DNA of 64,000 nucleotides from Opitutales bacterium. GTDB taxonomy: Bacteria > Verrucomicrobiota > Verrucomicrobiia > Opitutales > PNEW01. The first letter of the stretch is position 1; every line of letters begins with the position of its first letter. The notes beneath the pieces were generated by a model. The model searched no databases. It was not told where the DNA came from and saw nothing but the letters and a program-made list of their open reading frames with translations. This document shows, in pieces, positions 1 to 52,283 of the stretch. The position numbers and the translations under genes were made by a program. The stretch lies in contig CBDANS010000007.1 of assembly GCA_965197745.1 (NCBI GenBank), positions 242,985 to 306,984 on the forward strand, in the 5' to 3' direction.

Positions 1-589
1 CTCCTGCCTCAGCCATGTCGGTATCGTAAAAATCGACATATATTTTCTCTTCCTGGTCACCCAGGGAGATTACTTGAGATACATTACCGAGACGAAGTAA
101 TTTATCGTGGACCTCTTCGGTGAGTTTTTTTAATTTTGCATAGGTGATATCTTTTCCTGAAACGGTAACAATTGTGCCGTAAACCTCACCATACTCGTCG
201 TTCAAAACAGGTTCCTGTACCCCTTCAGGCAAATCACTTTTTACCCGATCAATTTTGCGTTGTAACCGTGACCAGATAGGACGCATTTTCTGGTGGCGAT
301 CCGCTATTTTGACTAAAATTATCGAAGCATTTTTTCTTGAGATACTGTGCGCAAACTCCACTTCCGGCACTTCCCTTACCGCTTCTTCGATTTTCCGTGA
401 AACCAAGCTCTCGACTCTTTGAGCTGATGCACCGGGATATATAGTGACAATTAAGGTGTATCGAAAGACGATTGGTGGGTCTTCAGTACGCGGCAACTGC
501 ATAAAAGCAATAATTCCCCCTATAAATAAAAAAAATGAGGTCAAAAGAGTGAATCTTGCCTCTTTCAGCGCAATAACCGTAAGTTTCAT
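1..589 (-). CDS. RND (AcrB/ACR_tran family) efflux transporter permease, N-terminal fragment; gene runs off the left edge
   Basis: Absent from the ORF track because no stop lies in the window. The reverse-strand ATG at 589-587 translates to MKLTVIALKEARFTLLTSFFLFIGGIIAFMQLPRTEDPPIVFRYTLIVTIYPGASAQRVESLVSRKIEEAVREVPEVEF... This is the TM1 plus first periplasmic porter subdomain pattern typical of RND pumps. Confidence 0.7.
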   Translation of the reverse strand, partial: MKLTVIALKEARFTLLTSFFLFIGGIIAFMQLPRTEDPPIVFRYTLIVTIYPGASAQRVESLVSRKIEEAVREVPEVEFAHSISRKNASIILVKIADRHQKMRPIWSRLQRKIDRVKSDLPEGVQEPVLNDEYGEVYGTIVTVSGKDITYAKLKKLTEEVHDKLLRLGNVSQVISLGDQEEKIYVDFYDTDMAEAG

Positions 590-1350
590 ATAATTGAATC
601 CTGATGGAGAATAACCATAATTGATTTTATTTCTTTTGGTAGATTTCCGATCCTCGGTCAATCCAACTTATACACCTTATTATTGCTTTGTTTGTCAGAA
701 AGGCATCATTCTAACGGATTTTCTATCTTCTCCCTTTGCTTATTGACTGATAGCCTTATTTTTTCCAAAAATGGGCTTTAATTGTGTTTGGCAGTTATCT
801 TAAATGATAAATGGTCATAATATTCTTTAAAAATTAATAATGATTCTTATTGAATAATTATAAATTAGCTACATTAACGATGATCATCAGTAGAAATGTT
901 TACCGGATATGTATATCGATTTTGTTAACGGACAGAACCGATGGCGATTGTTGGTATCTAATTAACCTGCCAGAAATGGCATGAAATACCAGAGTGATTC
1001 TGCAGGTTCTTTTCGAGAGCTATAATAGTTTTCAGTATCCAATAAACGTCGAACTAAATTTTGAAAGATAAGTGAACAAACCCGGCCCGATGATCGTAAT
1101 TGATCACCTGCACAATCTTATTCCAAGAGACCTTCACTTGGATAGCTTTTTTATGATTAATAAAGCTGACACGAGAAGCATTTTGAGAACATCAATTCAC
1201 AGTTTCTAATCTGAATTTTTTATCATTTACCTAGACAAGAGAAGGGTCCAAAGCATTAAGATTAATTGAGAATTATAGTATGAAAATTGTGTATCGAATG
1301 CATGCTCTAGAGAAGAGCAGGCCTAGCTCTTTATTGTGGGAGGCAACCGA

Positions 1351-4300
1351 ATGATTAATCAAGGGAAGCGCCCCATAGCGATCATAGGAATAGGTTGCCG
1401 GTTTCCTGGTGGTGCAAAGAACTCAGCCTCTTTCTGGACCTCATTGCGCAATGGCCAGAATGCTATAGTCGAAGTTCCTGAGGATCGCTGGAATCTACAG
1501 CGATTTTATGATCCCAATCCTCAATTGCCGGGTAAAATGACAACCCGTTGGGGGGGGTTCCTCGATACCATTGATCAGTTTGATGCTCAATTCTTTGGAA
1601 TTTCGCCCCGCGAAGCATTGAGGATGGATCCTCAGCAGAGATGGCTGCTGGAAGTGGCATGGGAGGCACTCGAAGATGGAGGATTAGCTCCCGATCAAGT
1701 AGCAGGGTCACGCACCGGTGTTTTTGTCGGCATTTCAAGCAATGATTATGCGAATATCCAAATGAAAGGGCCCCAGGATGTTGATATGTATACCAACAGT
1801 GGGAGCACCCTGAGCATAGCTTCTGGCAGAATTTCTTATTTGTTTGATTTAAAGGGTCCAAGCCTGTCGGTTGATACCGCATGTTCATCGGCTCTTGTTG
1901 CCGTAAATCTTGCCTGCAATAGTATCTGGGATGGGCAGTGTGACACAGCTCTGGCAGGTGGAGTAAATGCACTGCTAACCCCTGATTCTTCTATAGGATT
2001 CAGCAAAGCGTCCATGCTGTCACCTGACGGCCGGTGTTACACCTTCGATGAACGGGCAAATGGTTATGTGCGTGGTGAAGGAGCGGGGTTAATCGTGCTC
2101 AAGCCGTTGGACGATGCACTGGAAGATGAAGATCCCATTTATGCCGTAATTCGCTCTAGCATTGTGAATCAAGATGGTCGCACGAGTTCAATGACGGTGC
2201 CGGGGCAATTTTCTCAGGAAGCTATGTTGAACGAAGCTTATGAACAAGCGGGAATCTCGCCGTCGAGAGTTTGTTACATAGAAGCGCATGGCACGGGAAC
2301 ACCGGTAGGGGACCCGATTGAAGTTCTTGCCTTAGGGAATATTTTGTCCAAGGGAAGAAAAGCTGAAGATAAATGTGTAATTGGGTCGGTTAAAACGAAT
2401 ATTGGTCATTTAGAATCTGCATCAGGTATAGCGGGTCTTATAAAAGCGGCACTGGTTCTAAAATATAAAGAGATTCCTCCTAATTTACATTTTGAAACCC
2501 CCAATCCCCATATTCCCTTTGAAAAACTTAAACTACGGGTTCCAACAAAGTTAGAGTCAATCCCGAAAGGATCAGACCCGGCGGTGGTCGCCGTTAACTC
2601 TTTTGGTTTTGGAGGCACTAATGCCCATGTGGTATTAGAAGAAGCGCCGGTCATCGCTAAAAGACGGAAAAAAATAAATAAAGATGATGCCCCCAGGCCC
2701 TACCTTGTCCCTCTATCGGGAAAAGGACAGCAGTCATTAAAAAAGAGTGCTGAGAATCTGGTTGATTTACTATCCGGACAATCGAATGGCACTGAAATAT
2801 TCCTGCCTGATCTTGCCCACACGGCAAGCTTGCGCAAGGGGCACCATGACCATCGATTAGCACTCGTTGCGTGTTCGGAAAATGAAGTTATAGTAAAGCT
2901 TAATGGGTATCTTTCCGAGAATAAGGTGAAAGGCCTTGTTGAAGGAAGAGCAAAAACTGAAAATCAAAAAGAAATTGTTTTTATATTCACCGGTCAGGGT
3001 CCGCAATGGTGGGCGATGGGGCGTGAACTTTTGGAAAAAGATCCGTTATTTCGTAAAAAGATAGAAAAGTGTGACAAACTGTTGAGCGAATACACCTCCT
3101 GGTCACTCGTTGAAGAATTATCCCGAGATGAAGCCAGTTCCAGGATAGACGATACATCCGTTGCACAACCGGCGATTTTCGCTTTACAAATAGCCTTAGC
3201 TGATTGGTGGAAGGCGAGGGGCGTGTCCCCCACCTGTGTTATCGGGCATAGTGTAGGCGAGGTTGCTGCCGCTTACTGTTCCGGAATCTATACCCTCAAC
3301 GATGCCATCAAGATAATATATCACCGCAGTCACTTACAAGCAACAACGCGCGGCTCGGGACGTATGGTAGTGGTGGCCATTTCACCGGATAAAGCTAAGG
3401 CCTTAATTCAGGGGTTTGAAGATCAAGTGACGATTTCCGCGATCAACAGTCCGGGCCTTGTGACTTTAGCCGGAGATACAAAAGTTTTGGAATCAATAAT
3501 CGAACCGCTTGAAAAAGATCAGGTATTTATCCGCTGGCTGGATGTCGATTATGCCTTCCATACAAATAAGATGGACCCTATTAAGGACGATTTACTTCAA
3601 GTCCTTTCAGAGATCAGACCACGCGCTTCAAAAATTCCCTATTACTCAACCGTCAGCGGAGAGGTTATGGACGGAAAGAAGTTAGACGCCAGCTATTGGT
3701 GGCGTAATATACGTGAAACCGTACTTTTTGGTCCGGCGATAGACGTTATTATTAGTAAGGATCACGACCTTTACCTGGAATTGGGCCCGCATCCTTCGCA
3801 TTCCAGTTCTGTCTTAGAATGTCTGGCCCACAAAGGGAAGAATGGATCGGTTTTGCCCTCGTTGCGACGAAAAGAGTCGGATCAGCAGACTTTGCTTGAA
3901 ACTCTAGCCACTTTATATACCCGGGGATATCCCATCCAATGGGATGCGCTCTATGGAAAGGAAGGACAATTTGTTCAATTGCCATCCTACCCCTGGAAGT
4001 CTGAACGACTATGGTTAGAATCACCCGTCTCTGAAGAGTACCGTTTTGGATCCATTGTGCATCCCCTCCTCGGGGAAAAAGTAAATGCTCCGAGCCCAAC
4101 ATGGGAATGCGAGCTTGATCCCCGCGCCTTACCCTACCTCGCCGATCACAGACTTCACGATTCCATGGTATTTCCAGGCGCCGCCTATGTTGAGATCGCG
4201 CTCGCGGCCCTTAATGAGCTATATCCCAATGAACCTTTTGTCATTGAAGATATCAAAATTCTTAAAGGGTTGTTCATGTCAGAAGACGGTGTCATTACCA

Positions 4301-7300
4301 TTCAAATGGTCTGTGATAAAACTGATGATTCCTTTAATATATTCAGTTCTACGGATACGACTGCTGGGGAATGGGAAATTCACGCCCAGGGACGCTATCA
4401 GAAATTAGCACCGCGTGATCCTGGCAATTTGGCTGTCGATCAAATTAAAGACGCGATGGAGGAGGAGATCGATCACGCCAAAATTTATTCAGATTTTGAT
4501 GATGTTGGATATCAGTTCGGTCCCTGCTTCAGAGAAGTACAAAAAATCTGGAGAAAAGATGGGGAATCGTTGGCTGAGATTCAGGTAACAGACGCGGTTT
4601 TAGAAGATATGGAGTCAAACTTCTTTCAACCTGCAGTTTTGGATGCCTGCTTTCAAAGTGGCAAGGAATCCAGAGTTAAGGATGAAAACAGAAAGGCACG
4701 CGACAATTTTTATATGCCTATCGCTCTGAAAAGAGTGAGGTTCTTTAAAAGTCCGACTCCCCGTCTTTGGTGTTATACGCAATTAGTGAGCGACGAAGGA
4801 GACCGCGTTGAATATGATCTTAAAGTCGCCAATGACGATGAATCTATCATCGCCGAGATCAAAGGCTTTTGCGTTCAGCGGGTAGATCAGTCTGAGACAA
4901 AAGCAGAAGAGGATCTCGAAAATTGCTATTATCAATTTCACTGGCATCCCTCATCGCTTCCCGGAGCGCGGCGTGACCCAATTGAACTCATAAGTCCCGA
5001 ACGGCTTATAGAAGTATTGGATCCTGAAATTATCCCTACCTACGATAAATATAATCTTGATGGTTACGTTAGTGATTTTATGCCTCAAATGGAAACTTTG
5101 AGCTTTAATTTCATTCTCACGGCTCTCCGAAAAATGGGATGGAAGCCGGCAATAGGTGATCGGGTATCGATTGACAGTTTAATCGAAGAATTGGGCATCA
5201 TGGAGCAACATCACCGCTTATTGCAGCATTCCATATTTGAGACATTGAAAAAAGAAGCGGTGATTCAAGCGACCGAGGATGGAGAATGGGAAGTAGCCCG
5301 TACCCCTGATTCATTAAATTTAGAAGATCTATGCAGTGCCCTAAGAAATAACTTTCCTCACTTATGGGCGGAAATGGATTTGCTCATAGATTGTGGGTAT
5401 GTTCTGGCAGAAGTGCTTACGGGTGAAAAAGATCCGCTCGATGTCATTTTTCCTGCCGGTGATCAGAAAAAAATTGAAAGTTTTTATAAGGATTCTTCTG
5501 ACTTTCAGGCCTACAACAGCTTGCTCCAAAAGGCCATCGACAAGCTTGCCAGTGAGCTGCCAGAAAAGGGCAAGCTGCGTATTCTGGAAATTGGAAGTGG
5601 CACCGGTTCTTTGACGGAAAGCTTGCTTGAAGTCTTATCCCCCGATCGTACCGAATATTACTTTACCGACATATCTCCCTTATTCATCGCATCGGCGAAA
5701 GAAAATTTTAAAAATTATGATTTTATAGAATATAGTATTCTCGATATTGAGAAACCACCGGGAGAGCAGAAATTTGATCTCCAATCATACGATTTGGTTT
5801 TAGCTACGAATGTCCTGCACGCCACTAAAGATTTAAAGCAAACACTCCGTCATATTAATCAGCTGATGACGGAAGAAGGCCTTTTGCTATTTCTCGAAGT
5901 TACGACTAAAAGGTTATTTTTGGATCTGGTTTTTGGTCTGCTTCCCGGCTGGTGGAGATATTCAGACGATGAATTGCGGACGACACATGCTTTGATTACT
6001 CGCCAGGAGTGGGAGGGGCTTCTTAATGAAAGTGGTTTTCGAAACGTAAATTCCTTTGTCAATACAATGGAGGAAAGCCACGCCAATCAATCCGTGTTCT
6101 TAGCCAACGCCTCCGAGCTTTTAACGGAGATGGATCGCAAAGAAGCCATCGATGAATCCTCAGATAAGAATAAAACCTGGTTGATTTTCGCTGATCAAAG
6201 CGGTTTTGCCGAGTCTCTAGTGAATCAAATGGAAGAGAGGGATAGCACATGTATCATGGTTACCCCGGGTGAATCCTTTGTCGAGGTGGGAGAACGCTGC
6301 TACCAGATTCATCCCGAACAATTGCAAGACATGGAGGATCTATTCACTCATCTCGAGCTTGATCCGAATGCCCTGCAAGGAATTATTCACATGTGGAGCC
6401 TTGACCATCCCACCGCTGATATAACAACACCTGAATCTCTCGAACTTGCTCAACAAACAGGATGCCTCAATGTTTTAAATCTCATTCAAACGCTTGTGAA
6501 ATCAGAGCCCGATCCCGCACCACGGGTTTGGATGATCACGCACGGCATGCAGTTGGTTTCCGATACGGATAGAAACGAACGCATTGCTTCAGCTCCTTTA
6601 ATCGGGCTCGCCCGGGTCGCCAATAATGAGCATTGGGATTATCACTGGACAGCTATTGATCTGGAATCTTCGAGCACTCCATTGGAATTAGAATTTTTAG
6701 TTAATGAGATCTGTTCTGCGGACGATGAATTGGAAATTGCTTACCGTGGAGGGGAGCGGTTTGTTAATCGAATAGAGAAAACGGTTAAGGATGAAATACC
6801 AGCAAGAACAAAAGATGCGGTAAGACGTGATGGGGTAATTCCTTACCGACTCGAGATACCGACTCCCGGAATTCTTAATAATTTACGATTAAATGAGACA
6901 GAGCGCAGCGCGCCAGGACCTCAGGAAATAGAAATAAAAGTTGCTGCGGTCGGCCTGAACTTCCGTGACGTGATGAAAGTTTTAGGCATGTACCCGGGTA
7001 ACAGCAGAGATTTGAAGTGGCTTGGGGACGAATGTTCGGGAACCGTTGTTTCTGTTGGTGAAGAAGTGAAAAATTTCCAGGTGGGTGATGAAGTTATAGG
7101 CATGATGGTTCCCTATTGTTGTCGATCTTACGCCATCGTGAATGAGGCACTTGTTTTTCACAAACCTTCCAAGCAGTCATTCGAAGAGGCCGCGACCCTG
7201 CCGATTGTTTTCCTCACCGCGCATTATACTTTGAACCATTTAGCCCACCTTCGTAAAGGTGAGAAAATATTAATACACGCGGGTGCAGGCGGTGTCGGCC

Positions 7301-10300
7301 AGGCTGCTATTCAAATGGCTAAGCACATCGGGGCCGAGATTTTTGCAACCGCAGGTTCACCTGAAAAACGTGAGTTTCTTAAAAGCCAGGGAATAGCCCA
7401 TGTCATGGACGACAGGACATTGGATTTTGCTGATGAAGTCATGGAAATTACTGAAGGGAAAGGTGTCGATGTCGTATTGAACCAATTGGCTGGTGACTTT
7501 ATCACGAAGAGTTTATCGGTGCTCGCTCCCTTTGGAAGGTTTCTGGAAATCGGGAAAGTAGATATCTATCAAAACACAAAAATTGGGCTCGAACCATTTA
7601 AGAAGAACCTGACCTATTTTGCCGTTGATCTTTCGAAACATATAGAAGAACGACCCGAGATAATTACCATGATGCTTCAAGAGTTATCGGTAATGTTTGA
7701 AAGAGAAGAGCTGAAGCCATTACCGTTTAAAGCATTTCCTATCACACAAGCAGTCGAGGCTTTCCGTTATTTTGCTCAATCGAAACACATCGGTAAAAAT
7801 GTACTCTCACTGCAAGAGGATTCTATCCTTGTTGGCTTGCCTTCCGAGCAAAAAACACTGTTCCGTGCTGATGGAACATACCTTATCACCGGTGGATTAG
7901 GGGGATTCGGTCTGGAAGTTGCCAAGTGGATGGTAAAATCAGGGGCGAAAAATTTAGTCCTCATGGGACGTTCGGGTGCATCGACCGATGATGCCATGGA
8001 AGCTTTACAGACGATGCGAAATAACGGCGCCCAGGTGGTAGTGGCCAAAGCCGATGTAGTCATCCATGACGATGTAGAACGCGTCTTAAACAAGATCGAT
8101 GAGGAAATGCCTCCTTTAAAGGGGGTCATTCATGCTGCTATGGTTTTGGATGATGGATTCCTTGTTCAGATAGACACTGAGAAATTCAAAAAGGTACTGC
8201 GTCCAAAAATGATAGGCGCCTGGCATTTACATCAGCTGACTCAGCAGATGCATATAGATTTCTTCGTGCTCTTTTCTTCTGCTTCGTCAATGCTTGGACC
8301 GAACGGACAGGGAAACTATGCTTCGGCCAATTTCTTCCTGGATGCGCTCGCCCATTATCGCAATGCCATGGGTCTTCATGCCCTCACGGTCAACTGGGGT
8401 GCATTATCCGAAGCCGGATACGTGGCCCGGAATGAAAACGTTGCCAAGTATCTGGATATTCTGGGCCTGGAAAGTTTCACTCCGCAGGAAGCACTCAGCA
8501 TTTTTGCTCAAATCCTGCCGAAAAATCCAGTTCAACTGGGAGCTTCCCATGTGAACTGGAAAACGATTTCAAAGATAAATCCACAGATGGGTAGTTCGAA
8601 GTTGTTCTCCCTGGTTATAAGCCAGGATGCACTTTCAGAAAAGACCGGAGCCCACGCCCATTCATTCAGGCCTCAACTTCTTGGCGCTGCGCCTGAAGAC
8701 CGGCATAAAATGGTAGAGAATTATATAAGTGAACAGGTAGCTCAAGTCTTTGGCACCTCAGCCGATAAAATTGATCGCGATACACCCCTGACCACGATTG
8801 GCCTCGATTCATTGATGGCCATAGAGTTGATGAACCGCCTGGAATCTAATTTAGGAATTAATTTGCCCATGGGTAAATTCCTGCAAGGGCCGAATATTTC
8901 TCAACTTGCCATTCCCGTTCTCGAATTACTGGTTAAGTCTGATTCCGGTTCGGATACAGCGAGTTCGCCTCGAAATGTAACGGCGGGAGAAGAATTGATG
9001 GAGTTTCCCTTATCCCAGGGACAACGAGCGCTCTGGTTTTTACACCGCCTCGCGCCAAGCAGCGCTGCCTACAACCTGGTCTTCAGTTCGCGCATTACTC
9101 CTTATGTCGACATTGACATTATGAAAAAGGCTTTTGCCCGTATCTTTCATTCCCATCCGATGCTCGACATTGTTATCTCCACGGTCGATGGAGAACCCAT
9201 GCAGACATTGCAAAAAGGACGCAGTGTCGATTTTCGAGAACACGATGCAACCCAACTTAGCGATGATGAACTTAAGGCATTGCTCGTAGAGCACGCGCAT
9301 AAACCCTTCAATCTTCAAACCGGCCCGGTTATCCGTTTGGAGCTGTTCCGTACTGCGACGGGGTCCCATGTGACGCAACTGGCTATGCACCACATTGTTT
9401 CCGATGCATGGTCTATCGTGATTGTTCTCAACGAGCTCATGGAAACTTACTTGGCCATCAAGGCCGGTCGTGAGCCTGACGTTCAACCCCCTGAATTCAG
9501 GTATTCAGACTATGTAAACTGGCAGAAAAACCTCTTGCAAAGTCCTGAAGCTGATCGTTTGGGCAGTTATTGGTATGAATATCTCGCAGACTCATCGATG
9601 GTCCTTGATTTACCCACGGACCACCCGCGTCCACCAGTCCAGTCTTTTAACGGCGCGACCTTTGGTTTCAAACTTGAAGAGGACCTTACGCAGAAGGTTT
9701 TGAAACTGGCTGAGGAGAAAAGAGTCACCCTTTATACTACCCTTCTGTCCGTATTTAATATTTTAATGCATCGTTATTGTAATCAAGAGGACATTATCAT
9801 CGGGAGTCCTTTATCCGGACGTATAAATAAAGAATTTCATCATATTACCGGTTATTTTATCAATCCCGTTGCGTTGCGTAGCAGAATGGGTGATGACCCC
9901 GCTTATTTTGATTACCTGGATCGTGTCTATCAATCGGTAATTGGCGCTTTAGAAAATCAGGATTATCCATTTCCACTTCTTGTCGATCGACTTAAAGTAA
10001 AGCGTGATCCCAGTCGATCGCCTATATTCCAGGCCAGCTTTTCTATGGAGAGAACACCTGGAGTTGATGATCAGGGCATAGCTGTATTTCTTATTGGTCA
10101 GGGCGGGCATAAATTTAATGCCGAAGACATGGTGATCGAGTCGATAGATCTTACTTTGCGCATGGCACAATTTGAGATTACACTCGTGGTGGAAGAAGCA
10201 GGGGGCAATATTTACGGCTGCTGGCAATATAACAGCGATCTGTTCGAGCCTGAAACGATTAGTCGTCTTAGCGGTTTTTATAAACAGTTGCTTAACGAAA

Positions 10301-13300
10301 TCGTATCTCATCCTGAGAAAAAGATTTCCGAGTTTAATTTGCTTTCAGCGGATGAAGAAAAACAGGAAATAGTAGACTGGAACGCAACTGCCTCTAAATA
10401 TCCTGAGCATTTATGCCTCCACCATATTATCTCTGACCAGTCAGCTAAAACACCCCATTCAACGGCGATCAGTTTCGATGGGGAATCCATGACTTATGAG
10501 GAATTGGAGAGAAAATCAAACGGCCTGGCCCTAGCATTACATCAGAAAGGTATCGGTCCGGACACCCCCGTTGGGCTCTATCATGAACGGTCCATGAACA
10601 TGGTTGTCGGGTTACTAGGTATACTTAAAGCTGGTGGTTGTTATGTGCCTCTGGATCCAGAATTCCCACCCCTCAGGCTGGAACAGATGCTCGACAATGC
10701 AAACCCATCTGTGGTGGTTACACAAAGCGAACTGGCGAGTGCCTTACCTCAAGGTCAATGGGAATCTATCTTTGTCGAAGAAGTGAGTGAGGCGGAGACA
10801 ACACCTCAAGTCGATGGCCTGAATCCCGATTCGCTTGCTTATATTATTTATACATCCGGGTCTACAGGCGTGCCAAAGGGTGTGGAAATTTCCCATCAGT
10901 CTCTGGTTAACTTTTTATATTCAATGCAGAGGGAGCCAGGTTTAAGTGATGAGGATAAACTTTTAGCAGTAACGACACTTTCTTTTGATATTTCAGGATT
11001 GGAACTCTACCTGCCACTGATTTCCGGTGCTCAGGTTATTCTGGCCTCTCGTAAAGTCGCAGCTGATGGCAGACAGCTGGCAGCTCTCATAAAAAGCACC
11101 AATCCCACCATTATACAGGCTACCCCGGCTACCTGGCAGATGTTACTGGATTCGGGCTGGTACGGAAAACAAAACCTTCGGATACTTTGTGGAGGTGAAC
11201 CCCTACCACCGGATTTGGCGGAGCATTTATGTGAAATGGGTGCGGAAGTTTGGAATCTTTATGGTCCGACCGAAACAACCATCTGGTCTACGGCGTCACA
11301 AATTGAAAAAGGTGATGATGTCGTCTCTATCGGCCGCCCCATCGCCAATACAAAAATATACATTTTAGATGAGGAAGAAAAACCCCTTCCCACGGGCTTT
11401 GCCGGCAATCTTTACATTGGCGGTGACGGTCTGGCCCGAGGCTATCACAAACAACCTGAGCTCACTAAGGAATCATTTGTTGAGTTGTCGTTAAATCAGC
11501 AGGAAACTGAGCGCGTATACAAAACCGGTGACTTAGCGCGCTATTTATCCGATGGCTCAATTGAATGCATTGGTCGCCGCGACTCTCAAATTAAACTGCG
11601 TGGTCACCGTATCGAGCTAAGTGAAATCGAAACGGTGCTTCGTGATCATCCCGCTGTAAAAAGTGCTTTGGTCCTGATGCGCAAAGATATGCCGGGAGGT
11701 CCGGGTATTGCCGCTTATATTATACCCATGGAAAATAACGACAGATTAGTTCCGGATCTGCGATCACACCTCACTGAGCGCTTGCCTCAATATATGCAGC
11801 CTTCTGCTTATATGGTCCTCGATGAATTCCCGCTCACCCCCAATAATAAAATTGACCGCAATCATCTCCCGCTTCCCTCTTTAAAGCGTTCCGATTTGCG
11901 AACAGATTATTTGGCACCCCAAACGCCGACTGAGAAGATTCTCTGTGATATATTAAATCAGGCTTTCAAGAGTGATAAGATTGGCATTCACGACAATTTC
12001 TTCGAGTTGGGTGGCGATTCACTAATGGCGGTGGAAATATTGTCGAGTATCACTTCCGCTTTTAACCGTGAATTACCGATTGAGGTCTTTTTGCGCAATC
12101 CTACGGTGGAAAGTCTGGGCTATTATTTTGAACTCACTCCCGAAAATATTGAGGTGAATTCCTCCCCCCATAAGAATGGAGATTCAAAGGTTAATAACAT
12201 TGATGACTTGTTTAAAAGCAGTTATCTGGATATCGAGCATGTAAATGGTAAAAATGGGGATCGCACTAAGTTCCCTGAGGTGGATGCCGTTGCTCTTGCT
12301 TACATCCCCGATGCTTTCCTCCCCCTCACGGGTCTTTCCAAAGATGAAATTTCACGTCAGTGGTTTCAACATCAGCCTTTTGTCAGCAATTACTACGAGA
12401 CTCCATTTGGAAAAATCGCTATCGTCATGTTACCGCGGTTAGGAGCTGAACTTTACAAAGATCAAGTGCCTCTCGGTGATAATATCTTAAGCTCCTTAAA
12501 ATTGGCTGCCGATATGGGGGCCAGTACCGTATCCCTGACCGGCCTCATCCCCTCGGCTACTGACTATGGAAGAAGTATCTCACACTGGATAAACGGCCAC
12601 GACAATTTACCCGCCATAACTACGGGGCACGCCACAACCACAGCAACGATCGTGAAAACGATTACCGGTATGCTTGAGCAGACAATGCGTGACTTCAGTG
12701 AGGAAAAAATTGCCATCGTCGGTTTGGGATCCATCGGCTATGCCACACTGCGACTTATGCTTGAAGTGATGCCGCATCCGGTTGAGCTTATCCTCTGTGA
12801 TCTTTACCGAAAAGCGGACATTCTTGAGAATATTAGAAGTGAACTGATTGAAAAGGTTGGCTTTAAAGGAGCTATCCGTGTGGTGACAACGCGAGGCCAA
12901 TTGCCCGACGCCATATACGATGCATCTTTTGTCCTTGGGGCCAGCAATGTTCCTGGTATCCTGGATATCAATCGCCTGCGTCCCGGCACCTTATTGGTAG
13001 ACGATTCATTTCCACCTTGTTTCCGTCTCACCGATGCGATCAGACGAATTGAAGAAGAGCAGGACATTCTCTTTACAACCGGTGGGTTGTTGCGCTGTTC
13101 GGAAGAAATTAAAGAGACTATATATCTGCCGGATGGAGCCGGTGAGTTATTCTCTAAATTAGGGGTTGATAAAGTGCAGAGACTGGCTGGACGCGACCCA
13201 CGCGAAATCACGGGATGTATCCTTTCCAGTCTCTTAACCGGACACGAACCGAATATTTCTACTACGATTGGACCAGTGGAAATCAAGGACTCACTCGCTC

Positions 13301-13434
13301 ACTATAAACTTCTCGAAAAGTTGGGACTGGAGTCAGCAAGACCGCAATGTGAAGGCTTCTTTATCGATGACGTAATTATCGAACGATTCAAGAAACGCAA
13401 CGGATCACATACCGTTCAGACTGAATCCGTTTGA
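1351..13434 (+). CDS. Hybrid type I polyketide synthase / nonribosomal peptide synthetase: KS-AT-DH-cMT-(psiKR)-ER-KR-ACP-C-A(Gly)-PCP-AAR-like reductase domain
   Basis: The 4032-aa track ORF starts at GTG 1336. I prefer ATG 1351, which is preceded by GGGAGG (1338-1343) with a 7-nt spacer. Motifs, in track numbering: KS DTACSS (C183), EAHGTGT (H318), NIGHLE (H358). AT GHSVGE (S639) and YAFH (739-742). DH HPLLG / [17 protein letters not shown] (H938) and DACFQ (D1103). cMT [8 protein letters not shown] (1417-1424). ER [11 protein letters not shown] (1981-). KR [8 protein letters not shown] (2185-), LDD (2271-2273), Y2328. ACP GLDSL (S2492). C MHHIVSD (2684-2690). A [12 protein letters not shown] (3172-) and NNKIDR (K3505). 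PCP GGDSL (S3562). Terminal Rossmann motif VGLGSIG (3795-3801). Confidence 0.95.
   Translation: [4027 protein letters not shown]
1366..2646 (+). other. Ketosynthase (KS) domain of the megasynthase
   Basis: The Cys-His-His triad is intact: DTACSS (C183, nt 1882-1884), [15 protein letters not shown]. It ends with [13 protein letters not shown]. Confidence 0.9.
2971..3921 (+). other. Acyltransferase (AT) domain, probably malonyl-specific
   Basis: [14 protein letters not shown] (S639), and YAFH at the specificity motif. The xAFH form leans malonyl (HAFH) rather than methylmalonyl (YASH). Confidence 0.85.
4048..4890 (+). other. Dehydratase (DH) domain
   Basis: HPLLG start, catalytic His in [17 protein letters not shown] (HxxxDxxxxP variant of HxxxGxxxxP), and a DxxxQ motif (LDACFQ). 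Confidence 0.8.
5353..6105 (+). other. C-methyltransferase (cMT) domain, SAM-dependent
   Basis: SAM motif I [14 protein letters not shown] (nt 5581-), followed by [12 protein letters not shown] and EEGLLLFLE motifs. It sits between DH and ER as in FAS and HR-PKS enzymes. Confidence 0.8.
6838..7815 (+). other. Enoylreductase (ER) domain, MDR family
   Basis: [15 protein letters not shown] start, NADPH motif [18 protein letters not shown], and C-terminal HIGKNVL. Confidence 0.85.
7861..8430 (+). other. Ketoreductase (KR) catalytic subdomain, B-type
   Basis: [19 protein letters not shown] Rossmann motif, LDD motif (HAAMVLDDG), catalytic Tyr in GQGNYASAN. Confidence 0.85.
8698..8925 (+). other. 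Acyl carrier protein (ACP) domain
   Basis: The phosphopantetheine attachment site [13 protein letters not shown] is verified at nt 8809-8811 (tca = S2492). Confidence 0.85.
8998..10320 (+). other. NRPS condensation (C) domain
   Basis: [12 protein letters not shown] start and active site [10 protein letters not shown] (HHxxxD). Confidence 0.85.
10393..11865 (+). other. NRPS adenylation (A) domain, predicted glycine-activating
   Basis: Core motifs [61 protein letters not shown]. Hand extraction of the 10-residue code against GrsA numbering gives D-I-L-Q-L-G-L-I-W-K. Confidence 0.8.
11923..12135 (+). other. Peptidyl carrier protein (PCP/T) domain
   Basis: [14 protein letters not shown], with Ser3562 verified at nt 12019-12021. 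Confidence 0.85.
12268..13431 (+). other. C-terminal Rossmann domain resembling long-chain acyl-ACP reductase (AAR); putative non-canonical reductive release domain
   Basis: [29 protein letters not shown] (GxGxxG, nt 12721-), [31 protein letters not shown], and [17 protein letters not shown] (Cys3961, nt 13216-13218). These follow, in order, the recalled AAR blocks [11 protein letters not shown] / [14 protein letters not shown] / [10 protein letters not shown]...VLIDGGYP / MFACFAEAMLLEFEG. There is no TE GxSxG motif and no SDR R-domain GxTGFLG motif. Confidence 0.55.
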
Positions 13435-13458: not shown

Positions 13459-14580
13459 GTGGAGTCGACATTGCTGCATCCGTTGTGCGGAAGCAATCTG
13501 ATTACATTTCTACGTGCTTTTGCCCGCCCGCGTCCTCTTTGTTGGCAAAAGCTGCCTGTGGGGTTTATCGCGGCAGCATCAGTTTTGGGACGATTTCCCT
13601 TTTATCAGTTCGAACGCTTATCACAAGCACGTGCTATTATACAAACCCCATTACCAGCGGAACCCATTTTTATCATTGGACACTGGCGTAGCGGCACGAC
13701 ACACCTGCACAATCTCATCAGTCAGGATTCACAATTTGGATCGATCAGTTTCCTTCAAACTGCATTGCCCTGGGACTTTATCGGCCAGGTCAATTTATCT
13801 CAGAAAATTCTCCGTAAGAAACTCCCCGACGATCGGGGGATGGACAAGGTAAAACTGACAATCGATTCCCCACAAGAAGAAGAGATGGCTCTGGGAAATA
13901 TGGGTCCACTATGTTATTATTACTGTTATTATTTTCCCCGGGAAATTGAAGAACACTTTAATCGGGCGGTCCTATTCAACGGAGTCTCATCAAGCGAAAT
14001 AAAAAACTTTGAAAATAATTACTGCTATCTTTTAAAAAAACTGACCCTGTTTCATGGAGATAAGAAAAAGCTGCTTTTAAAAAATCCCGCAAACACCGGT
14101 CGCATACGTTGGCTGCGGAGTATTTTTCCAGGCGCTAAGTTCATTCATATTCATCGCAATCCTTACACGGTCTATGCCTCAACCCTAAAGCATTTTAATA
14201 GAACCATGACGACTTTCGCCTGGCAGCCCTATGAGGGAATTGACTTTAATAAAATTACCCTGCGTCACTATCGCCTTCTCATGCAGCGTTACTTGGATGA
14301 GCGATCAACTATCCCCCCGGAAAACTTAATTGAGGTATCTATGGATGAAGTAGAGAAAGATGCGCCCGGGGTGATCGATAACATATACCGAAAATTTTCT
14401 TTGTCCAATCGGGATAGGGCGCTTGAAGCAATTAATTCATACTGCGAAGGACAGCGAAATTACCGTAAGAACAGTTATGTATTAAGCGGGGATCAAGTTG
14501 CTAATATAAATAAACACTGGGACTTTACGTTGAAAGAATATGATTACGGAATGCCGGGTGAAATAAAGGTGGAAAACTGA
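13459..14580 (+). CDS. Sulfotransferase family protein (PAPS-dependent, Sulfotransfer_3-like)
   Basis: 373 aa. 5'-PSB loop IFIIGHWRSGTTHLHNL and 3'-PB region FIHIHRNPYTVYAS. GTG start with AAGGA 8 nt upstream, only 24 nt after the megasynthase stop. Confidence 0.8.
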   Translation: MESTLLHPLCGSNLITFLRAFARPRPLCWQKLPVGFIAAASVLGRFPFYQFERLSQARAIIQTPLPAEPIFIIGHWRSGTTHLHNLISQDSQFGSISFLQTALPWDFIGQVNLSQKILRKKLPDDRGMDKVKLTIDSPQEEEMALGNMGPLCYYYCYYFPREIEEHFNRAVLFNGVSSSEIKNFENNYCYLLKKLTLFHGDKKKLLLKNPANTGRIRWLRSIFPGAKFIHIHRNPYTVYASTLKHFNRTMTTFAWQPYEGIDFNKITLRHYRLLMQRYLDERSTIPPENLIEVSMDEVEKDAPGVIDNIYRKFSLSNRDRALEAINSYCEGQRNYRKNSYVLSGDQVANINKHWDFTLKEYDYGMPGEIKVEN

Positions 14581-14582
14581 AT

Positions 14583-16565
14583 TTAGAGGCGATTCTTAAC
14601 CAGCATTTCGACTACTTTCGGGTCCGCAAGAGTCGTCGTATCTCCTATCTCATCCGGTGCATTCTCCGCAATTTTTCTTAGAATGCGACGCATGATCTTT
14701 CCCGAGCGGGTTTTCGGCAGACCGGGTGAGAACTGCAGTTTATCAGGGGTGGCAATGGGTCCAATCTCGGAACGCACATGTTTTACCAGTTCCTGTTTTA
14801 AGTCATCGCTCCCTTCCACCCCTCCGATGAGCGTGACAAAAGCATAGAGAGATTGACCTTTTATGTCGTGGGGCATTGGGGCGACCGCTGCTTCTGCTAC
14901 CATGGGATGACTGACTAAGGCGCTTTCAACTTCGGCTGTTCCAATCCGATGACCGGAGACATTGACAACATCATCGACGCGGCCCATCAGCCAGTAATCC
15001 CCATCACTATCAATACGGCAACCATCGCCGGTAAAGTAGAGATCATTAAAGGTGTTAAAATATGTATCGATAAAGCGATCATGATCACCCCAGGTGGTAC
15101 GCATTATCCCGGGCCAAGGTTTTTTGATACAGAGTTTACCGCCTTCATTGGGATTACATTCACTACCATCATCCCGCAATATTACAGGTTCGACTCCAAA
15201 GAAAGGGTGTGAAGCACTTCCCGGTTTTAAAACGTGAGCGCCCGGATAGGGGGTAATCAAGTGACCCCCTGTTTCCGTTTGCCACCAGGTATCGACAATG
15301 GGACAAGAGCCATGACCAATTTCCCGAAAATACCACATCCAGGCCTCTGGGTTGATCGGTTCTCCCACCGTCCCCAACAGCCGAAGTGAACTTAAATCAT
15401 ACTTAGCCGGCCATTCATTGCCCTGGGCGATCAATGCGCGAATCACTGTAGGGGCGGTGTAGAACACCGTTGCCTTGTATTTTTCACATACCTGCCAAAA
15501 ACGGCCTGGATCAGGATAAGTAGGGACCCCTTCGAACATGAGACTCGTCGAACCGTTGGCCAGCGGCCCGTAGACAATGTAACTATGTCCTGTCACCCAT
15601 CCAATGTCAGCTGAACACCAATATATGTCATCCTCGTGAATATCAAAAATATATTTATGCGTGAGACTGGTGTGTAGGAGGTAACCTGCCGTGGAATGAA
15701 CCACCCCTTTCGGTTTACCCGTTGAACCCGAGGTGTAGAGAATAAAGAGAATCGTTTCGGCACTTAAAGCCTCAGGCGGGCAGTCTTCGTTTACCTTGCT
15801 CATTTCATCGTGATACCACAGATCGCGACCTTCAATGAAATCACACGGTTCATCATTACGCTTAACCAAAATGACCTTTTCGATAGAGGGTGTATTTTCG
15901 AGAGCCTTATCAGAGATATTTTTCAGGAGGATAAATTTTCCTGAACGCAAAGCTACATTGGAGGTGATTAGTATTTTACAATCAGAATCATTAATACGAT
16001 CTGCCAGTGAATCCGCGCTGAAACCCCCGAAAACCACAGAGTGGATAGCGCCGATACGGGCACAACCAAGCATTACGATAGGCAACTCGACTATCATTGG
16101 CAGATATATCGCAACCCGGTCACCTTTTTTTATGCCATGTGCTTTTAGCACGTTGGCAAATTTACAAACTTCTTTATGTAATTCCTCGTAGGTAAGTGTC
16201 CGCGTGTCTTCTTCAGGTTCTCCCTGCCAGATCAGTGCCGGTTTTGTCCGTCGATCGGTTTTCAAGTGTCGATCAAGACAGTTTATGGTAATATTTATTT
16301 CACCATCTTCAAACCATGTATGCTCTATTTTACGTGCCTTGGAATCCCAGGTATATTTGCATGCGGTGCCAGGCGCTTTAATCCAGTCCAATGTCTCAGC
16401 CTGCTCTAACCAGAAAGCATCGGGATCATTTACCGAACGTTCATACATTTCGCAGTATTTTTGATTATCAATATGCGCTTTCTCCACGAATTGCTCGGAG
16501 GGGGGAAAGGTGCGCTCCTCGGTCATTAATGAATCGGTCGATATAGTCTGTTTTTCTTCTGCCAT
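14583..16565 (-). CDS. acs: Acetyl-CoA synthetase (acetate--CoA ligase)
   Basis: 660 aa with the typical Acs layout: ...YCEMYERSVNDPDAFW..., YTSGSTGKPKGV, WWQTETGG, and C-terminal LPKTRSGKIMRRILRKIA. Confidence 0.95.
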   Translation of the reverse strand: MAEEKQTISTDSLMTEERTFPPSEQFVEKAHIDNQKYCEMYERSVNDPDAFWLEQAETLDWIKAPGTACKYTWDSKARKIEHTWFEDGEINITINCLDRHLKTDRRTKPALIWQGEPEEDTRTLTYEELHKEVCKFANVLKAHGIKKGDRVAIYLPMIVELPIVMLGCARIGAIHSVVFGGFSADSLADRINDSDCKILITSNVALRSGKFILLKNISDKALENTPSIEKVILVKRNDEPCDFIEGRDLWYHDEMSKVNEDCPPEALSAETILFILYTSGSTGKPKGVVHSTAGYLLHTSLTHKYIFDIHEDDIYWCSADIGWVTGHSYIVYGPLANGSTSLMFEGVPTYPDPGRFWQVCEKYKATVFYTAPTVIRALIAQGNEWPAKYDLSSLRLLGTVGEPINPEAWMWYFREIGHGSCPIVDTWWQTETGGHLITPYPGAHVLKPGSASHPFFGVEPVILRDDGSECNPNEGGKLCIKKPWPGIMRTTWGDHDRFIDTYFNTFNDLYFTGDGCRIDSDGDYWLMGRVDDVVNVSGHRIGTAEVESALVSHPMVAEAAVAPMPHDIKGQSLYAFVTLIGGVEGSDDLKQELVKHVRSEIGPIATPDKLQFSPGLPKTRSGKIMRRILRKIAENAPDEIGDTTTLADPKVVEMLVKNRL

Positions 16566-16655: not shown

Positions 16656-18134
16656 CTAGCTTCTACCCTTGAAAAACCGTTTCGGTGAAAAATATTTTTC
16701 CGGGTAATAATCCGGACAATCGATGTCCAGGATCTTGAAAACAATAAACTGAGTGGCGAGAAAGGATACCCCTGAACCCGAACCTGCCATACCGCCTACG
16801 ATATAAAGGCGCTTATTGTCCTGGAGACCAATGAGCGGAAATTCATCAGGCGTCATCCCCACCGTGCCGCTCCACTCATTGGTAACGCGTATCCGGGTTA
16901 TTCCAAAAAGGGTTTTTAAAAAAGCAGACACGTAATTGGTAATAAATCGTGAGGGCTGATTCAGCCCCGCTTCATGATCGGGGACTTTAGACATATCCGA
17001 ACCAAATAGGATACCGTCCTTTGTCCTGCTGAAAAACATTTCCGGACTGCTGATTGCTACTCCCTGTTGCATCGTTCCGTTATCACTGAGTCCATAGGCT
17101 GCTTGTGTCTGACCCACATTTAAAATGTTATGAAATTCCTTAAAGAGGGTAGCAGTATGAGACTCCGTTGCGTTGAGGACATATTTTGCCTGAATTGTCC
17201 CGCGATCGGTATGAATTTCATAAAAGTCACCGATGTCTTTCACCGCATTGACTTTAGTCTGCGAGTAAAATTCTACGTTGGGTGATTGAATGGCTATTTG
17301 CAATAGGCCCCAAATCCACTTGGCGGGATTCCAATTTGCGGTGCCTTGTGAATGCCCGGCATCGTAAGCTGTTTTTATACCTGCTTTTTCCATCGCCTCC
17401 TCAGGGGAGATTCTTATCCAGTCAGAAAATCCCGTCTCTTCACCCATTCGCTGGGCGGCAAGGGGTTTCCCCTGATTTTTTTCATCGGTGGCCCAGACCC
17501 AACCTTTTTTGATATAGTCACACTCAATTCCCTCTGTTTTCACCGTGTCTTCAATCATCTGATTGCTTTTGATTCCGGCAGTTACATAGGGTTTGGCAAA
17601 TTCATGAGCGATACTTATTCGCTCCGCTTCATTTAATTCCGGCCGTGTTCTCTCTAGGTTTTTCAACACCGTGCTGTGGACATAATAGTAATAGCGACCC
17701 ATCGTTACAACGCCGGCATTGCGACCCCCCGAGCCGCTCGCCGCCTCGTTCATTTCAAGTATGACCATCCTGGAATCTCCGTGTTTCGACCAGTGATAGG
17801 CAGCGCCCGCGCCAGCAAAGCCGGCACCGATAACCACAACCTGAGCTTTATCCGGTAATTTAACATTTGGATTCCCTTCCCAAGGATGATTTTCCAACGG
17901 ATTTTTGTCACGTAACCAGACAGGTGTTCTCGATACCGGATTGTTAAACTGAACCCAGGTCAGAGCATCAGGAATGGTCCGCCACATGGATTTTATCGAC
18001 CAGCATAAAAAGAGCAGCAGCTTTTGAATCAGTAATCTACCCGGGTACATAGTGTTAATCCAGGTTCTGGCTGCACGGAATTCGTGTCGGCGCATACCAA
18101 AAATTAATTTAAAAAAAATAAATATTCTATTCAT
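16656..18134 (-). CDS. FAD-dependent oxidoreductase (DAO family) with a hydrophobic N-terminus
   Basis: Dinucleotide motif [17 protein letters not shown]. The track ORF extends to 18221, but ATG 18134 overlaps the upstream gene's stop by 8 nt (TATGAATAG) and is the more plausible start. The start remains uncertain. Confidence 0.7.
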
Positions 18135-19086
18135 ATGTGTTCGCCAAGTCCTTCCATAAACTTTTTTGACGTTCATTGGCGGTGGATGGCAATTGTATTC
18201 TAATGACCGCATAGAGGTCACCGCGTTTCCCTTTGGCCTTCAGTAAACCAAGACTTTTAAGTCGAAATTTACGACCGTTTTCACAACCGGGAGGGACTTT
18301 AATAGCAACGCGTTGCTTGAGAGCAGGTATTTTAACAGTCGTCCCGAGAACCGCATCCCAGGGTGGAATTTCCAGATCATAATACAAGTCTGCTTCTTTA
18401 ACCGTAAAGTCGGGATGTTTGGCAAAGAGAACACGGAGTAGAATATCACCTGCCTGCCCATCCGCAGATCCTGTCCGACCTTTGCCGGCCAGACGAATAA
18501 GTTTACCTTCATGGACACCTTCAGGAATCTTGACGCGATAAGTTTCAGCTTTTTTTCCAGGCTCCCGACGCATGCTAACTTCTCTCACCGATCCGCTATT
18601 TACCTCCTCGAGGGTTACCATGATATCCGCTTTGATAACACTACCCCGTGTCGCTTTTTTATTACGGGTGAAACCGCTCGGGTCCGTGAATCCACTTTTT
18701 CGATTTCTCCCGCCCATTTCGCCGGAAGAGGATCCACCCCCAAAGAAAGCCTCGAAGAAATCACTGAATCCAGTGCCCCCAAATCGATATTCAAAACCGC
18801 CCTTTGGCCCACCTGATCCACGATTCCAACCCGGGGGAGGGCGAAATTCAGCTCCATGCTCCCAATTTGGACCTAGAGCATCATACTTTTTACGTTTTTG
18901 AGGGTCGCTTAATACCTCATATGCTTCATTGATTTGCTTAAATTTTTCTTCGGACTTTGATTTATTCTTCGCATGGTCAGGGTGATACTGGCGGGCCAGT
19001 TTTCGAAAAGCCTTTTTTATGGCCTCCTGGCTGGCCTCCTTAGCTATTCCCAAGGTATCGTAGTAGTCTTTAAATTTAATGGCCAT
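18127..19086 (-). CDS. cbpA: DnaJ-domain co-chaperone, CbpA-like (J domain, G/F-rich region and C-terminal domains; no zinc finger)
   Basis: [35 protein letters not shown] (HPD motif), a G/F-rich linker, and no CxxCxGxG repeats. Confidence 0.85.
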
Positions 19087-45389: not shown

Positions 45390-45397
45390 CGATCTAT

Positions 45398-46510: not shown

Positions 46511-46676
46511 TATGGTGTAAAAGGTGGATCTGAAACCTGCCTATTCTAATTCCACTTGATTTTATGTTGGGTGCAAATCATTTAGTCCATGGGTATTCGA
46601 GTTATGGCGTAATTATTTGTTATCTATGGTCATGCCTGTTGACTTAGAGACTTAAACGAACGATAATTAAAACGCC

Positions 46677-47606: not shown

Positions 47607-47637
47607 TCATCACTTGTCCACTCAGAGAATTTTAAAT

Positions 47638-48426: not shown

Positions 48427-48493
48427 TAAAGATCTCAAAAAGGGGATTATCACAGGTTGTGATGTAAAACCCCGCGATATTTACAATCTTAAT

Positions 48494-52253: not shown

Positions 52254-52283
52254 TTGCTTGGAATATAACCCGAATTTGTGGGG

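Follow-up and report, generated by a model that had tools for sequence, protein, structure and literature searches.

Which amino acid does the adenylation (A) domain of a hybrid synthase from the Verrucomicrobiota activate, and in which form does the enzyme release its product? This question is raised by a locus in a stretch of 64,000 nucleotides from an Opitutales bacterium (contig CBDANS010000007.1, positions 242,985 to 306,984), referred to as the window throughout. The locus encodes a polyketide synthase-nonribosomal peptide synthetase (PKS-NRPS) in a single gene, followed by the gene of a sulfotransferase. The domains are arranged on one polypeptide in the order KS-AT-DH-cMT-ER-KR-ACP-C-A-PCP-TAD, as assigned by Pfam and, for the terminal amidation domain (TAD), by PDB and structure matches (Table 1). 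We consider it likely that the A domain loads glycine and that the line, which would make an N-acylated glycine, terminates with a TAD. The sequence itself shows the order of the domains, their intact active sites, a pocket of the glycine type and a terminus of the TAD type. Residue numbers are counted throughout from the GTG at 1336, with which the mechanical open reading frame (ORF) 1336..13434 on the + strand begins (4032 aa; ORF list and translation).

The interval 10393-11865, which corresponds to residues 3020-3510, holds the A domain, with the Pfam families AMP-binding and AMP-binding_C matching residues 3034-3371 and 3430-3505, respectively. A preliminary description of this DNA had extracted the specificity code DILQLGLIWK by hand from five motif strings, FDISGLE, IIQATPATW, RILCGGE, WNLYGPTETTIWS and NNKIDR, all of which are present in the translation of ORF 1336..13434. 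The same code was reproduced in a MAFFT L-INS-i alignment of 73 A domains anchored on 1AMU, which comprised GrsA, the window domain and every near-full-length A domain from the fetched loci. GrsA, the reference for the numbering, is identical to PDB 1amu_A, residues 1-556, and reads DAWTIAAICK in this alignment. In other A domains, the columns used here read DFWNIGMVHK, DVWHFSLIDK, DLTKIGHVGK and DVGEVGSIDK, all of them canonical codes. Because the same columns yield textbook codes elsewhere, the column mapping follows the standard convention. Positions 299 and 301 are the L and the G of RI-L-C-G-GE in the multiple alignment, and not I and C, as an initial alignment in the preliminary description had suggested. 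At position 278, a pairwise local alignment had Ala instead (DIL-A-LGLIWK), owing to a gap of one residue before TLPPTY. This variant was rejected, since IIQATPATW aligns with VITLPPTYV of GrsA without a gap in the multiple alignment and since the alignments to glycine A domains are ungapped. The core motifs A3, A4, A5, A7, A8 and A10 are intact (YTSGSTGVPKG, FDIS, NLYGPTE, YKTGD, GRRDSQIKLRG and NNKIDR, respectively), with the Lys of A10 and the Asp at 235 that serves the alpha-amino group both present, and the A domain is contiguous (3034-3505) and of normal length, with no inserted or extra Pfam domain.

LgrA appeared as the top match of the whole domain in the PDB, but this ranking was an artefact of two A domains summing their scores (308 + 336 bits). 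Therefore, the pocket region alone (~115-118 aa) was searched again. AB3403 (4ZXH/4ZXI) scored 110.8 bits, the cross-module fragment of DhbF (5U89) 104 bits and 8WWW, an uncharacterised stand-alone domain, 84.9 bits, while the remaining A domains reached <=43 bits. The difference between 104-110.8 bits and <=43 bits for A domains outside this group is too large for a chance match. The pocket of the window domain aligns gap-free with those of AB3403 and DhbF (HMMER, 52% identity each) and shares nine of the nine visible code residues with DhbF (5U89, DILQLGLIW) and seven of nine with AB3403 (DILQLGVVW). According to PMC10510592, DhbF module 1 is a glycine module and the A-domain site of 4ZXI holds AMP and glycine; for AB3403, which stems from an uncharacterised pathway, glycine is there termed a 'representative substrate'. 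The window A domain resembles both proteins in its specificity residues and in all A-domain core motifs. The surroundings differ: DhbF and AB3403 are pure NRPS modules that end in a thioesterase (TE) or precede another module, whereas the window module has the ACP of a PKS as its donor and a TAD at its end.

The code itself points in the same direction. A survey of 2051 A domains records DILQLGMIWK for glycine-activating domains and states that most glycine codes vary only at positions 299, 322 and 330 (PMC12283262). A literature search with the code strings returned one paper, for DILQLGMIWK only, with a supplement in which no match was found. A metagenome scan with the A domain yielded 46 loci, in which nearly every near-full-length relative (43-51% identity) has a code that fits DILQ[LI]G[LMV][IV]WK. 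In the four loci with orthologous synthases described below, the codes are DILQLGLIWK (L001 and L002), DILQLGLVWK (L003) and DILQFGLVWK (L004). Few parts of the synthase are less conserved than the A domain (72% identity to the window in L001 and L002, 56% in L004), yet its code is kept. The variants found in orthologues and near relatives, L/I/F at 299, L/M/V at 322 and I/V at 330, are all aliphatic or aromatic, and the pocket is therefore not obviously enlarged. Taken together, the 1AMU-anchored code, the pocket match to DhbF and AB3403 and the codes of the relatives uphold the predicted glycine specificity, which we regard as very probable. The domain is a further member of a well-known clade of glycine A domains, and the glycine call as such is routine.

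Downstream of the A domain, a linker of ~80 residues separates PCP Ser3562 from the terminal domain, which extends up to the stop codon. The preliminary description had spoken of a reductase-like domain at this place. The comparisons do not agree with a thioester reductase of the short-chain dehydrogenase/reductase (SDR)/NAD_binding_4 type: the last 444 residues match no Pfam family at E<=0.01, and no SDR-type R domain is among the 50 Foldseek matches listed. In NCBIfam, the terminal domain had only weak matches, to NF053554, the N-terminal region of PigE (E = 4.6e-12), and to the acyl-ACP reductase TIGR04058 (E = 4e-4). In the PDB, it matched the CarI TAD structures 9E4S/9E4X with E = 1e-88 and 40% identity over 378 aligned residues. 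An AlphaFold model, based on an alignment of 25 homologues (pLDDT 90, pTM 0.90), reached TM scores of 0.89-0.93 to 9e4s/9e4x/9e50/9e56 ('TAD from Carmabin Biosynthetic Pathway') in Foldseek. The next fold was that of cyanobacterial acyl-ACP reductase (TM 0.60-0.64, 16-17% identity), followed by amino-acid and 2-hydroxyacid dehydrogenases. The terminal domain thus almost certainly belongs to the TAD family and not to the SDR reductases.

The TAD was defined by Rankin et al. in a preprint (bioRxiv 10.1101/2024.10.28.620694). A TAD of ~400 aa ends the proteins CarI, VatR and HcaD, and the corresponding products, the carmabins, vatiamides E-F and hectoramide B, have a primary amide as their terminus. 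The TAD binds NAD(H), and not NADP(H), beside an invariant Cys that can be reached by the PCP arm. The family comprises 757 known homologues, for which the authors report no consistent partner gene. The reaction resists reconstitution, partly from a lack of authentic substrates for the cyanobacterial enzymes, and one of the routes that are weighed passes through an aldehyde, with reduction, amination and re-oxidation. Our literature search found no later paper establishing the function of TADs.

The window TAD carries every residue highlighted in this preprint, and its motifs (Table 1) fall into invariant or near-invariant columns of 12- and 25-sequence alignments. It shares with the TADs of CarI, VatR and HcaD (PDB 9E4S-9E56) the two-lobed fold with a macrodomain-like N-lobe and a Rossmann C-lobe (TM 0.93), the position right after the last PCP, the Cys, the TTG and GxGxxG motifs, the NAD-selective Asp and the DDS loop. 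Besides the 40% identity, the differences are the loop sequence (DDSFP in the window, DDSGP in the others), the host (Verrucomicrobiota versus a marine cyanobacterium) and the preceding residue, which is glycine in the window and an N-methylated Tyr or Val in the other three. Moreover, one PKS module and one NRPS module within a single protein make up the whole assembly line of the window, and a sulfotransferase is co-conserved. The acyl-ACP reductase (6JZU) and the N-terminal thioester reductase of PigE have the overall fold and the Rossmann lobe in common with the window TAD, and the acyl-ACP reductase has a cysteine at the equivalent site. They differ in their low similarity (16-17% identity, TM 0.63), in their N-lobe and in lacking the second Asp of the DDS loop; neither of them follows a PCP, both being free-standing or N-terminal, and the acyl-ACP reductase uses NADPH. 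The second Asp, present in the window, is Val in the PigE alignment and, according to Rankin et al., Gly in acyl-ACP reductase. This residue separates TADs from true reductases. The preprint describes a mostly Verrucomicrobial 'cluster 3' variant with Tyr at this position, from which the window TAD differs because it has Asp there; the TAD of locus L051 (P0004) is such a Tyr variant (DYSFPP).

Four other metagenomic loci (L052-L055) carry modules that end in a TAD, and their codes are DVQEIAQVTK, DGSRVAGIGK, DVEDLGAIGK and DVENIGAIAK. Since these codes are unrelated to that of the window, TADs are not tied to glycine in general. L051 contains a lone C-A-PCP-TAD (691-4540) with the code DILQFGLVWK, whose C-A-PCP part is 57% identical to that of the window and which is accompanied by neither a PKS nor a sulfotransferase. 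As it repeats the C-A(Gly)-PCP-TAD arrangement without a PKS, the glycine-TAD cassette of the Verrucomicrobiota looks like a mobile unit. Other homologues show further arrangements. The TAD homologue P0014 is fused behind a thioesterase domain (PF00975) and not behind a PCP, and several others have an N-terminal PF18563 domain, which we take to be a docking domain of the TubC type. Because of these fusions, some TADs appear to act in trans.

From the domain content we propose the following course of events. The PKS part would use malonyl units to assemble, on the ACP, an acyl chain that is reduced and possibly methylated by S-adenosylmethionine (SAM). The A domain would adenylate glycine and load it onto Ser3562 of the PCP, a step for which the sequence evidence is strong, and the C domain, judging from the domain order, would N-acylate the glycyl thioester to N-acyl-glycyl-S-PCP. 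The acyl-glycyl chain would then move to Cys3961 of the TAD and be released. Analogy with the pathways of carmabin, vatiamide and hectoramide suggests the primary amide N-acyl-glycinamide as the form of release. Finally, the sulfotransferase would add sulfate somewhere on the product, and the pump of the resistance-nodulation-division (RND) type encoded next to the synthase gene may export it. By this analogy, the product is most likely a sulfated, possibly methyl-branched N-acyl-glycinamide.

The Pfam assignments agree with the general picture of the preliminary description, an N-acylated glycine that builds on a reducing PKS module in which a C-methyltransferase is included. Of the fatty-acyl-glycinal that it had predicted as the product, the N-acyl-glycine part stands and the aldehyde end has lost weight. 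The default prediction moves from glycinal to glycinamide because TADs accompany primary amides in three known pathways. The formation of an N-acyl-ethanolamine by further reduction, also proposed there, is weakened but not refuted, as the TAD fold is that of an aldehyde-forming reductase. An amide is the best-supported terminus since it is the only outcome associated with the TAD family. Even so, by analogy with these pathways we judge an amide, as opposed to an aldehyde or alcohol, to be an evenly balanced call.

A number of points weigh against the proposed pathway. Specificity codes are predictors and not proofs. The term 'amidation' describes a correlation in three close cyanobacterial pathways (85-95% mutual identity), to whose TADs the window TAD is 40% identical, and its fold is, as mentioned above, shared with an aldehyde-forming reductase. 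Rankin et al. offered the TAD ammonia, each of the 20 amino acids, NAD(H) and metals and detected no release of substrate. The loop that reads DDSGP in CarI, VatR and HcaD has Phe in place of Gly in the window. In the DH active site at 4147-4176, HRLHDSMVFP, an Asp replaces the Gly of the canonical HxxxGxxxxP motif. Genes for a phosphopantetheinyl transferase or for the synthesis of 3'-phosphoadenosine-5'-phosphosulfate (PAPS) were not found in the window. Furthermore, a fully reduced N-acyl-glycinamide has no obvious hydroxyl group for the co-conserved sulfotransferase, which fits better with a C-terminal alcohol or with a hydroxyl group left on the chain. A chain hydroxyl from incomplete reduction would reconcile the amide with sulfation.

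The alternative that survives best is a TAD acting as a true thioester reductase. The released N-acyl-glycinal would then be converted to an N-acyl-ethanolamine and O-sulfated by the adjacent sulfotransferase, which needs an acceptor and would find one in the C-terminal alcohol. The fold and the catalytic Cys are common to acyl-ACP reductase, the NCBIfam matches to NF053554 and TIGR04058 are weak but significant, and the route via an aldehyde considered by Rankin et al. would pass through the same intermediate. PigE reduces a thioester (PMC8341465). However, the similarity to the TAD of CarI far exceeds that to acyl-ACP reductase (40% identity and TM 0.93 versus 16-17% and TM 0.63), and both the TAD-specific second Asp and the Asp that selects NAD(H) over NADPH are kept. 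In addition, enzymes of the acyl-ACP reductase type stop at the aldehyde, no second reductase is conserved in the cluster, and three of three known TAD pathways give amides. We regard this alternative as possible but unlikely.

It is very unlikely that the A domain takes another small substrate, such as alanine, serine, beta-alanine or a non-proteinogenic acid, despite its glycine-like code. Codes are imperfect predictors, and for AB3403 glycine is only the representative substrate of an uncharacterised pathway. This is opposed by the complete agreement of the visible residues with the first A domain of DhbF, a bona fide glycine module, by the single code family of the near relatives, by the retention of the code across orthologues and by pocket variants that do not obviously add space.

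The glycine-loading module at the end of the window synthase can also be compared with the MtaG-type module of the myxothiazol pathway, which likewise has a glycine A domain with a near-identical code, stands at the end of a PKS-NRPS line and gives a terminal-amide product. The window module has no inserted monooxygenase (MOX), and the MtaG type leaves the amide after cleavage of glycine, whereas an amide formed by the window synthase would sit on glycine itself. A similarly sacrificial role of glycine as a nitrogen donor, in which the TAD would use NAD+ to cleave the N-C-alpha bond oxidatively to a primary fatty amide and glyoxylate, is highly improbable: glycine domains with DILQLGMIWK do pair with MOX domains for terminal amides and the TAD pocket seems to favour NAD+ (PMC12283262 for the former and bioRxiv 10.1101/2024.10.28.620694 for both), and C-A(Gly)-PCP-TAD recurs as a unit in two Verrucomicrobiota contexts (L004 and L051), but the contiguous A domain of normal length holds no MOX domain, carmabin, vatiamide and hectoramide keep and amidate their last amino acid without cleavage, the TAD modules of other phyla carry non-glycine codes (L052-L055), and the reaction is without precedent.

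The glycine call alone is routine genome mining, and its value lies in the context. The cluster encodes a lipid pathway of two genes that is conserved in Opitutales and as yet uncharacterised. The predicted substrate of the TAD, a fatty-acyl-glycyl thioester from the same polypeptide, is about as simple as possible. Because this simple substrate would be made by the synthase itself and the whole pathway consists of two genes, the system would be a practical test bed for TAD chemistry and for the nitrogen source, and would offer a first chemical handle on this orphan pathway. More speculatively, and in our view rather improbably, the strict pairing of TAD and sulfotransferase may mean that the latter acts on the terminus made by the former, with an alcohol being O-sulfated or an amide being activated. 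The self-contained gene pair, an iterative PKS-NRPS(Gly)-TAD on one protein and its sulfotransferase, would then produce undescribed sulfated, methyl-branched lipids derived from N-acyl-glycine in marine or host-associated Verrucomicrobiota, and with so simple an acyl-glycyl substrate the reaction of the TAD family as a whole would come to light. A literature search found no paper on the Verrucomicrobial cluster and returned only the unrelated palmerolide trans-AT PKS.

The synthase gene starts at the ATG at 1351, as shown by the equivalent ATG with which the orthologues begin (MINQGK...) and by a GGAGG 7 nt ahead of it. No record was found for the exact sequence of the protein from this start. 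Only ~10 residues precede the KS, and a docking or loading domain is therefore not present at the N-terminus. The YAFH motif of the AT belongs to the xAFH type, which we take to indicate malonyl specificity from established knowledge of AT motifs. In sequence comparisons, the KS-AT part scores highest with bacterial modular PKSs and with Mas (CurL 739 bits, PikAI 714, Mas 653) and lower with fungal highly reducing (HR) PKSs (LovB 522, PsoA 494), and it resembles both modular PKSs and the iterative Mas. No loading module, fatty acyl-AMP ligase (FAAL) or upstream docking domain was found in the window or in the readable upstream flanks of L001-L003, docking being judged from the N-terminus of the window protein; the sequence of L004 begins inside the synthase gene and thus contains no upstream flank. 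Because of this lack of a loading module, FAAL and docking domain, the PKS part probably goes through several rounds or receives its starter from fatty-acid or primary metabolism. The window synthase resembles the fungal HR-PKS-NRPSs (e.g. PsoA, 9X29) and the bacterial iterative PKS-NRPSs of polycyclic tetramate macrolactams in having KS-AT-DH-cMT-ER-KR-ACP-C-A-PCP and a release domain on one polypeptide without a loading module. It differs from them in ending in a TAD instead of R/DKC or TE release, and in its KS-AT being nearer to bacterial modular PKSs and Mas.

Table 1. Features of the synthase locus and of an unrelated block in the window (nucleotide positions within the window)
Feature	Position	Strand	Basis or remark
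RND/AcrB-family transporter, N-terminal part	2..589	-	Divergent; runs off left window end
AT-rich divergent intergenic region	590..1350	.	L001 counterpart ~5554-6325
Hybrid PKS-NRPS, single gene	1351..13434	+	4027 aa from ATG; ORF list, translation, orthologue starts
Ketosynthase (KS)	1369..2496	+	Pfam ketoacyl-synt, Ketoacyl-synt_C; active-site Cys DTACSS and both His motifs
Acyltransferase (AT)	2977..3924	+	Pfam Acyl_transf_1; motifs GHSVGE, YAFH
Dehydratase (DH)	4060..4896	+	Pfam PKS_DH_N, PS-DH; motif HxxxDxxxxP
C-methyltransferase (cMT) with HTH_51 fore-domain	5044..6048	+	Pfam HTH_51, Methyltransf_12, Methyltransf_23; SAM motif ILEIGSGTG
Enoylreductase (ER)	6916..7806	+	Pfam ADH_N, ADH_zinc_N, ADH_zinc_N_2; NADPH motif HAGAGGVG
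Ketoreductase (KR)	7873..8409	+	Pfam KR; GGLGGFG, LDD, catalytic Tyr motifs
Acyl carrier protein (ACP)	8722..8910	+	Pfam PP-binding; phosphopantetheine Ser = residue 2492 (GLDSL)
Condensation (C) domain	9001..10365	+	Pfam Condensation E = 2e-102; motif HHIVSDA
Adenylation (A) domain	10435..11850	+	Pfam AMP-binding, AMP-binding_C; code DILQLGLIWK (predicted glycine)
Code residue D3218	10987-10989	+	Codon read
Code residue I3219	10990-10992	+	Codon read
Code residue L3222	10999-11001	+	Codon read
Code residue Q3261	11116-11118	+	Codon read
Code residue L3284	11185-11187	+	Codon read
Code residue G3286	11191-11193	+	Codon read
Code residue L3308	11257-11259	+	Codon read
Code residue I3316	11281-11283	+	Codon read
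Code residue W3317	11284-11286	+	Codon read
Code residue K3505	11848-11850	+	Codon read
Peptidyl carrier protein (PCP)	11938..12135 (approximate bounds)	+	Pfam PP-binding, two stretches matched; Ser3562 (GGDSL)
Terminal amidation domain (TAD)	12268..13410	+	PDB 9e4s/9e4x match, AlphaFold/Foldseek, motifs
TAD motif ITTGH	12616-12630	+	TTG motif
TAD motif GLGSIG	12721-12738	+	GxGxxG
TAD motif LCD	12793-12801	+	NAD-selective Asp
TAD motif VDDSFPP	12997-13017	+	DDS loop
TAD catalytic Cys3961 (ITGC)	13216-13218	+	Invariant Cys
Sulfotransferase gene	13459..14580	+	Pfam Sulfotransfer_3 E = 1.4e-29; 24 nt downstream of synthase
Unrelated glycosyltransferase/PqqD-like block	43364-52739	mostly -	Pfam

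A genome scan with the methyltransferase region identified three orthologous loci (L001-L003) in Opitutales and Verrucomicrobia assemblies, with a whole-protein identity of 77% for L001 and L002. All three show the same arrangement: a divergent RND/AcrB gene, an AT-rich intergenic region of ~750 nt, the synthase gene, a Sulfotransfer_3 gene ~25 nt downstream and a convergent acetyl-CoA synthetase gene. In L004, a metagenomic locus that is further removed (TAD 63% and A domain 56% identical), the PKS, C-A-PCP, TAD and sulfotransferase recur, and the genes beyond differ. Since L004 keeps only this pair, the synthase and the sulfotransferase form the conserved unit. The metagenome scan with the A domain gave paralogous glycine A domains and no further PKS-TAD-sulfotransferase cassettes. 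The synthase orthologues of L003 (6326-18405) and L004 (1-11383) are broken into three or four ORFs, which may reflect assembly frameshifts or pseudogenisation.

The sulfotransferase gene directly follows the synthase gene in five of five loci and is the only partner gene common to all of them. Its product (encoded at 18432-19553 in L001 and 11528-12553 in L004) is 68-71% identical in L001-L003 and ~50% identical in L004, and has RSGTT and RNPxxxxxS motifs resembling those of PAPS binding and a hydrophobic N-terminus. A PDB sequence search at E<=1 returned only 2zq5 and 2z6v, presumably mycobacterial sulfotransferases, and no CurM or OLS entry. In contrast to the activating sulfotransferases of the CurM/OLS type, where the CurM domain is fused in front of a TE, the window sulfotransferase is encoded by a separate gene. 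The cluster account of the preliminary description was right about the A domain and had missed both this co-conserved partner and the absence of a loading module.

The RND transporter gene, which has the same position and orientation in L001-L003, was delimited by tblastn of the AcrB-family protein of L001 (Pfam ACR_tran) against window positions 1-1400 (74% identity over residues 1-195, nt 589..2). Its product is a possible exporter. The intergenic region has a mean column identity of 82% with long invariant blocks in a DNA alignment of the window, L001 and L003, and is presumably a promoter/regulatory region; a search of 590..1350 in Rfam gave no family at E<=1. Two genes downstream of the sulfotransferase gene were rejected as cluster members, as they are absent from L004: the acetyl-CoA synthetase gene (14583-16565) and a gene for a FAD-dependent oxidoreductase of the DAO family (521 aa, 16656-18221, - strand). 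The DAO family includes glycine and sarcosine oxidases, and this gene lies two genes downstream of the synthase gene; it is probably unrelated to the pathway.

The rest of the window is largely housekeeping, with nothing else that looks biosynthetic except for the block at 43.4-52.7 kb. This block encodes a class-III aminotransferase, a glycosyltransferase similar to MGDG synthase, an SDR epimerase, an NTP_transf_5 nucleotidyltransferase, two GT2 glycosyltransferases, two proteins without a Pfam match and a PqqD-like protein. The pairing of NTP_transf_5 with PqqD is reminiscent of tailoring clusters of the ribosomally synthesized and post-translationally modified peptide (RiPP) type.

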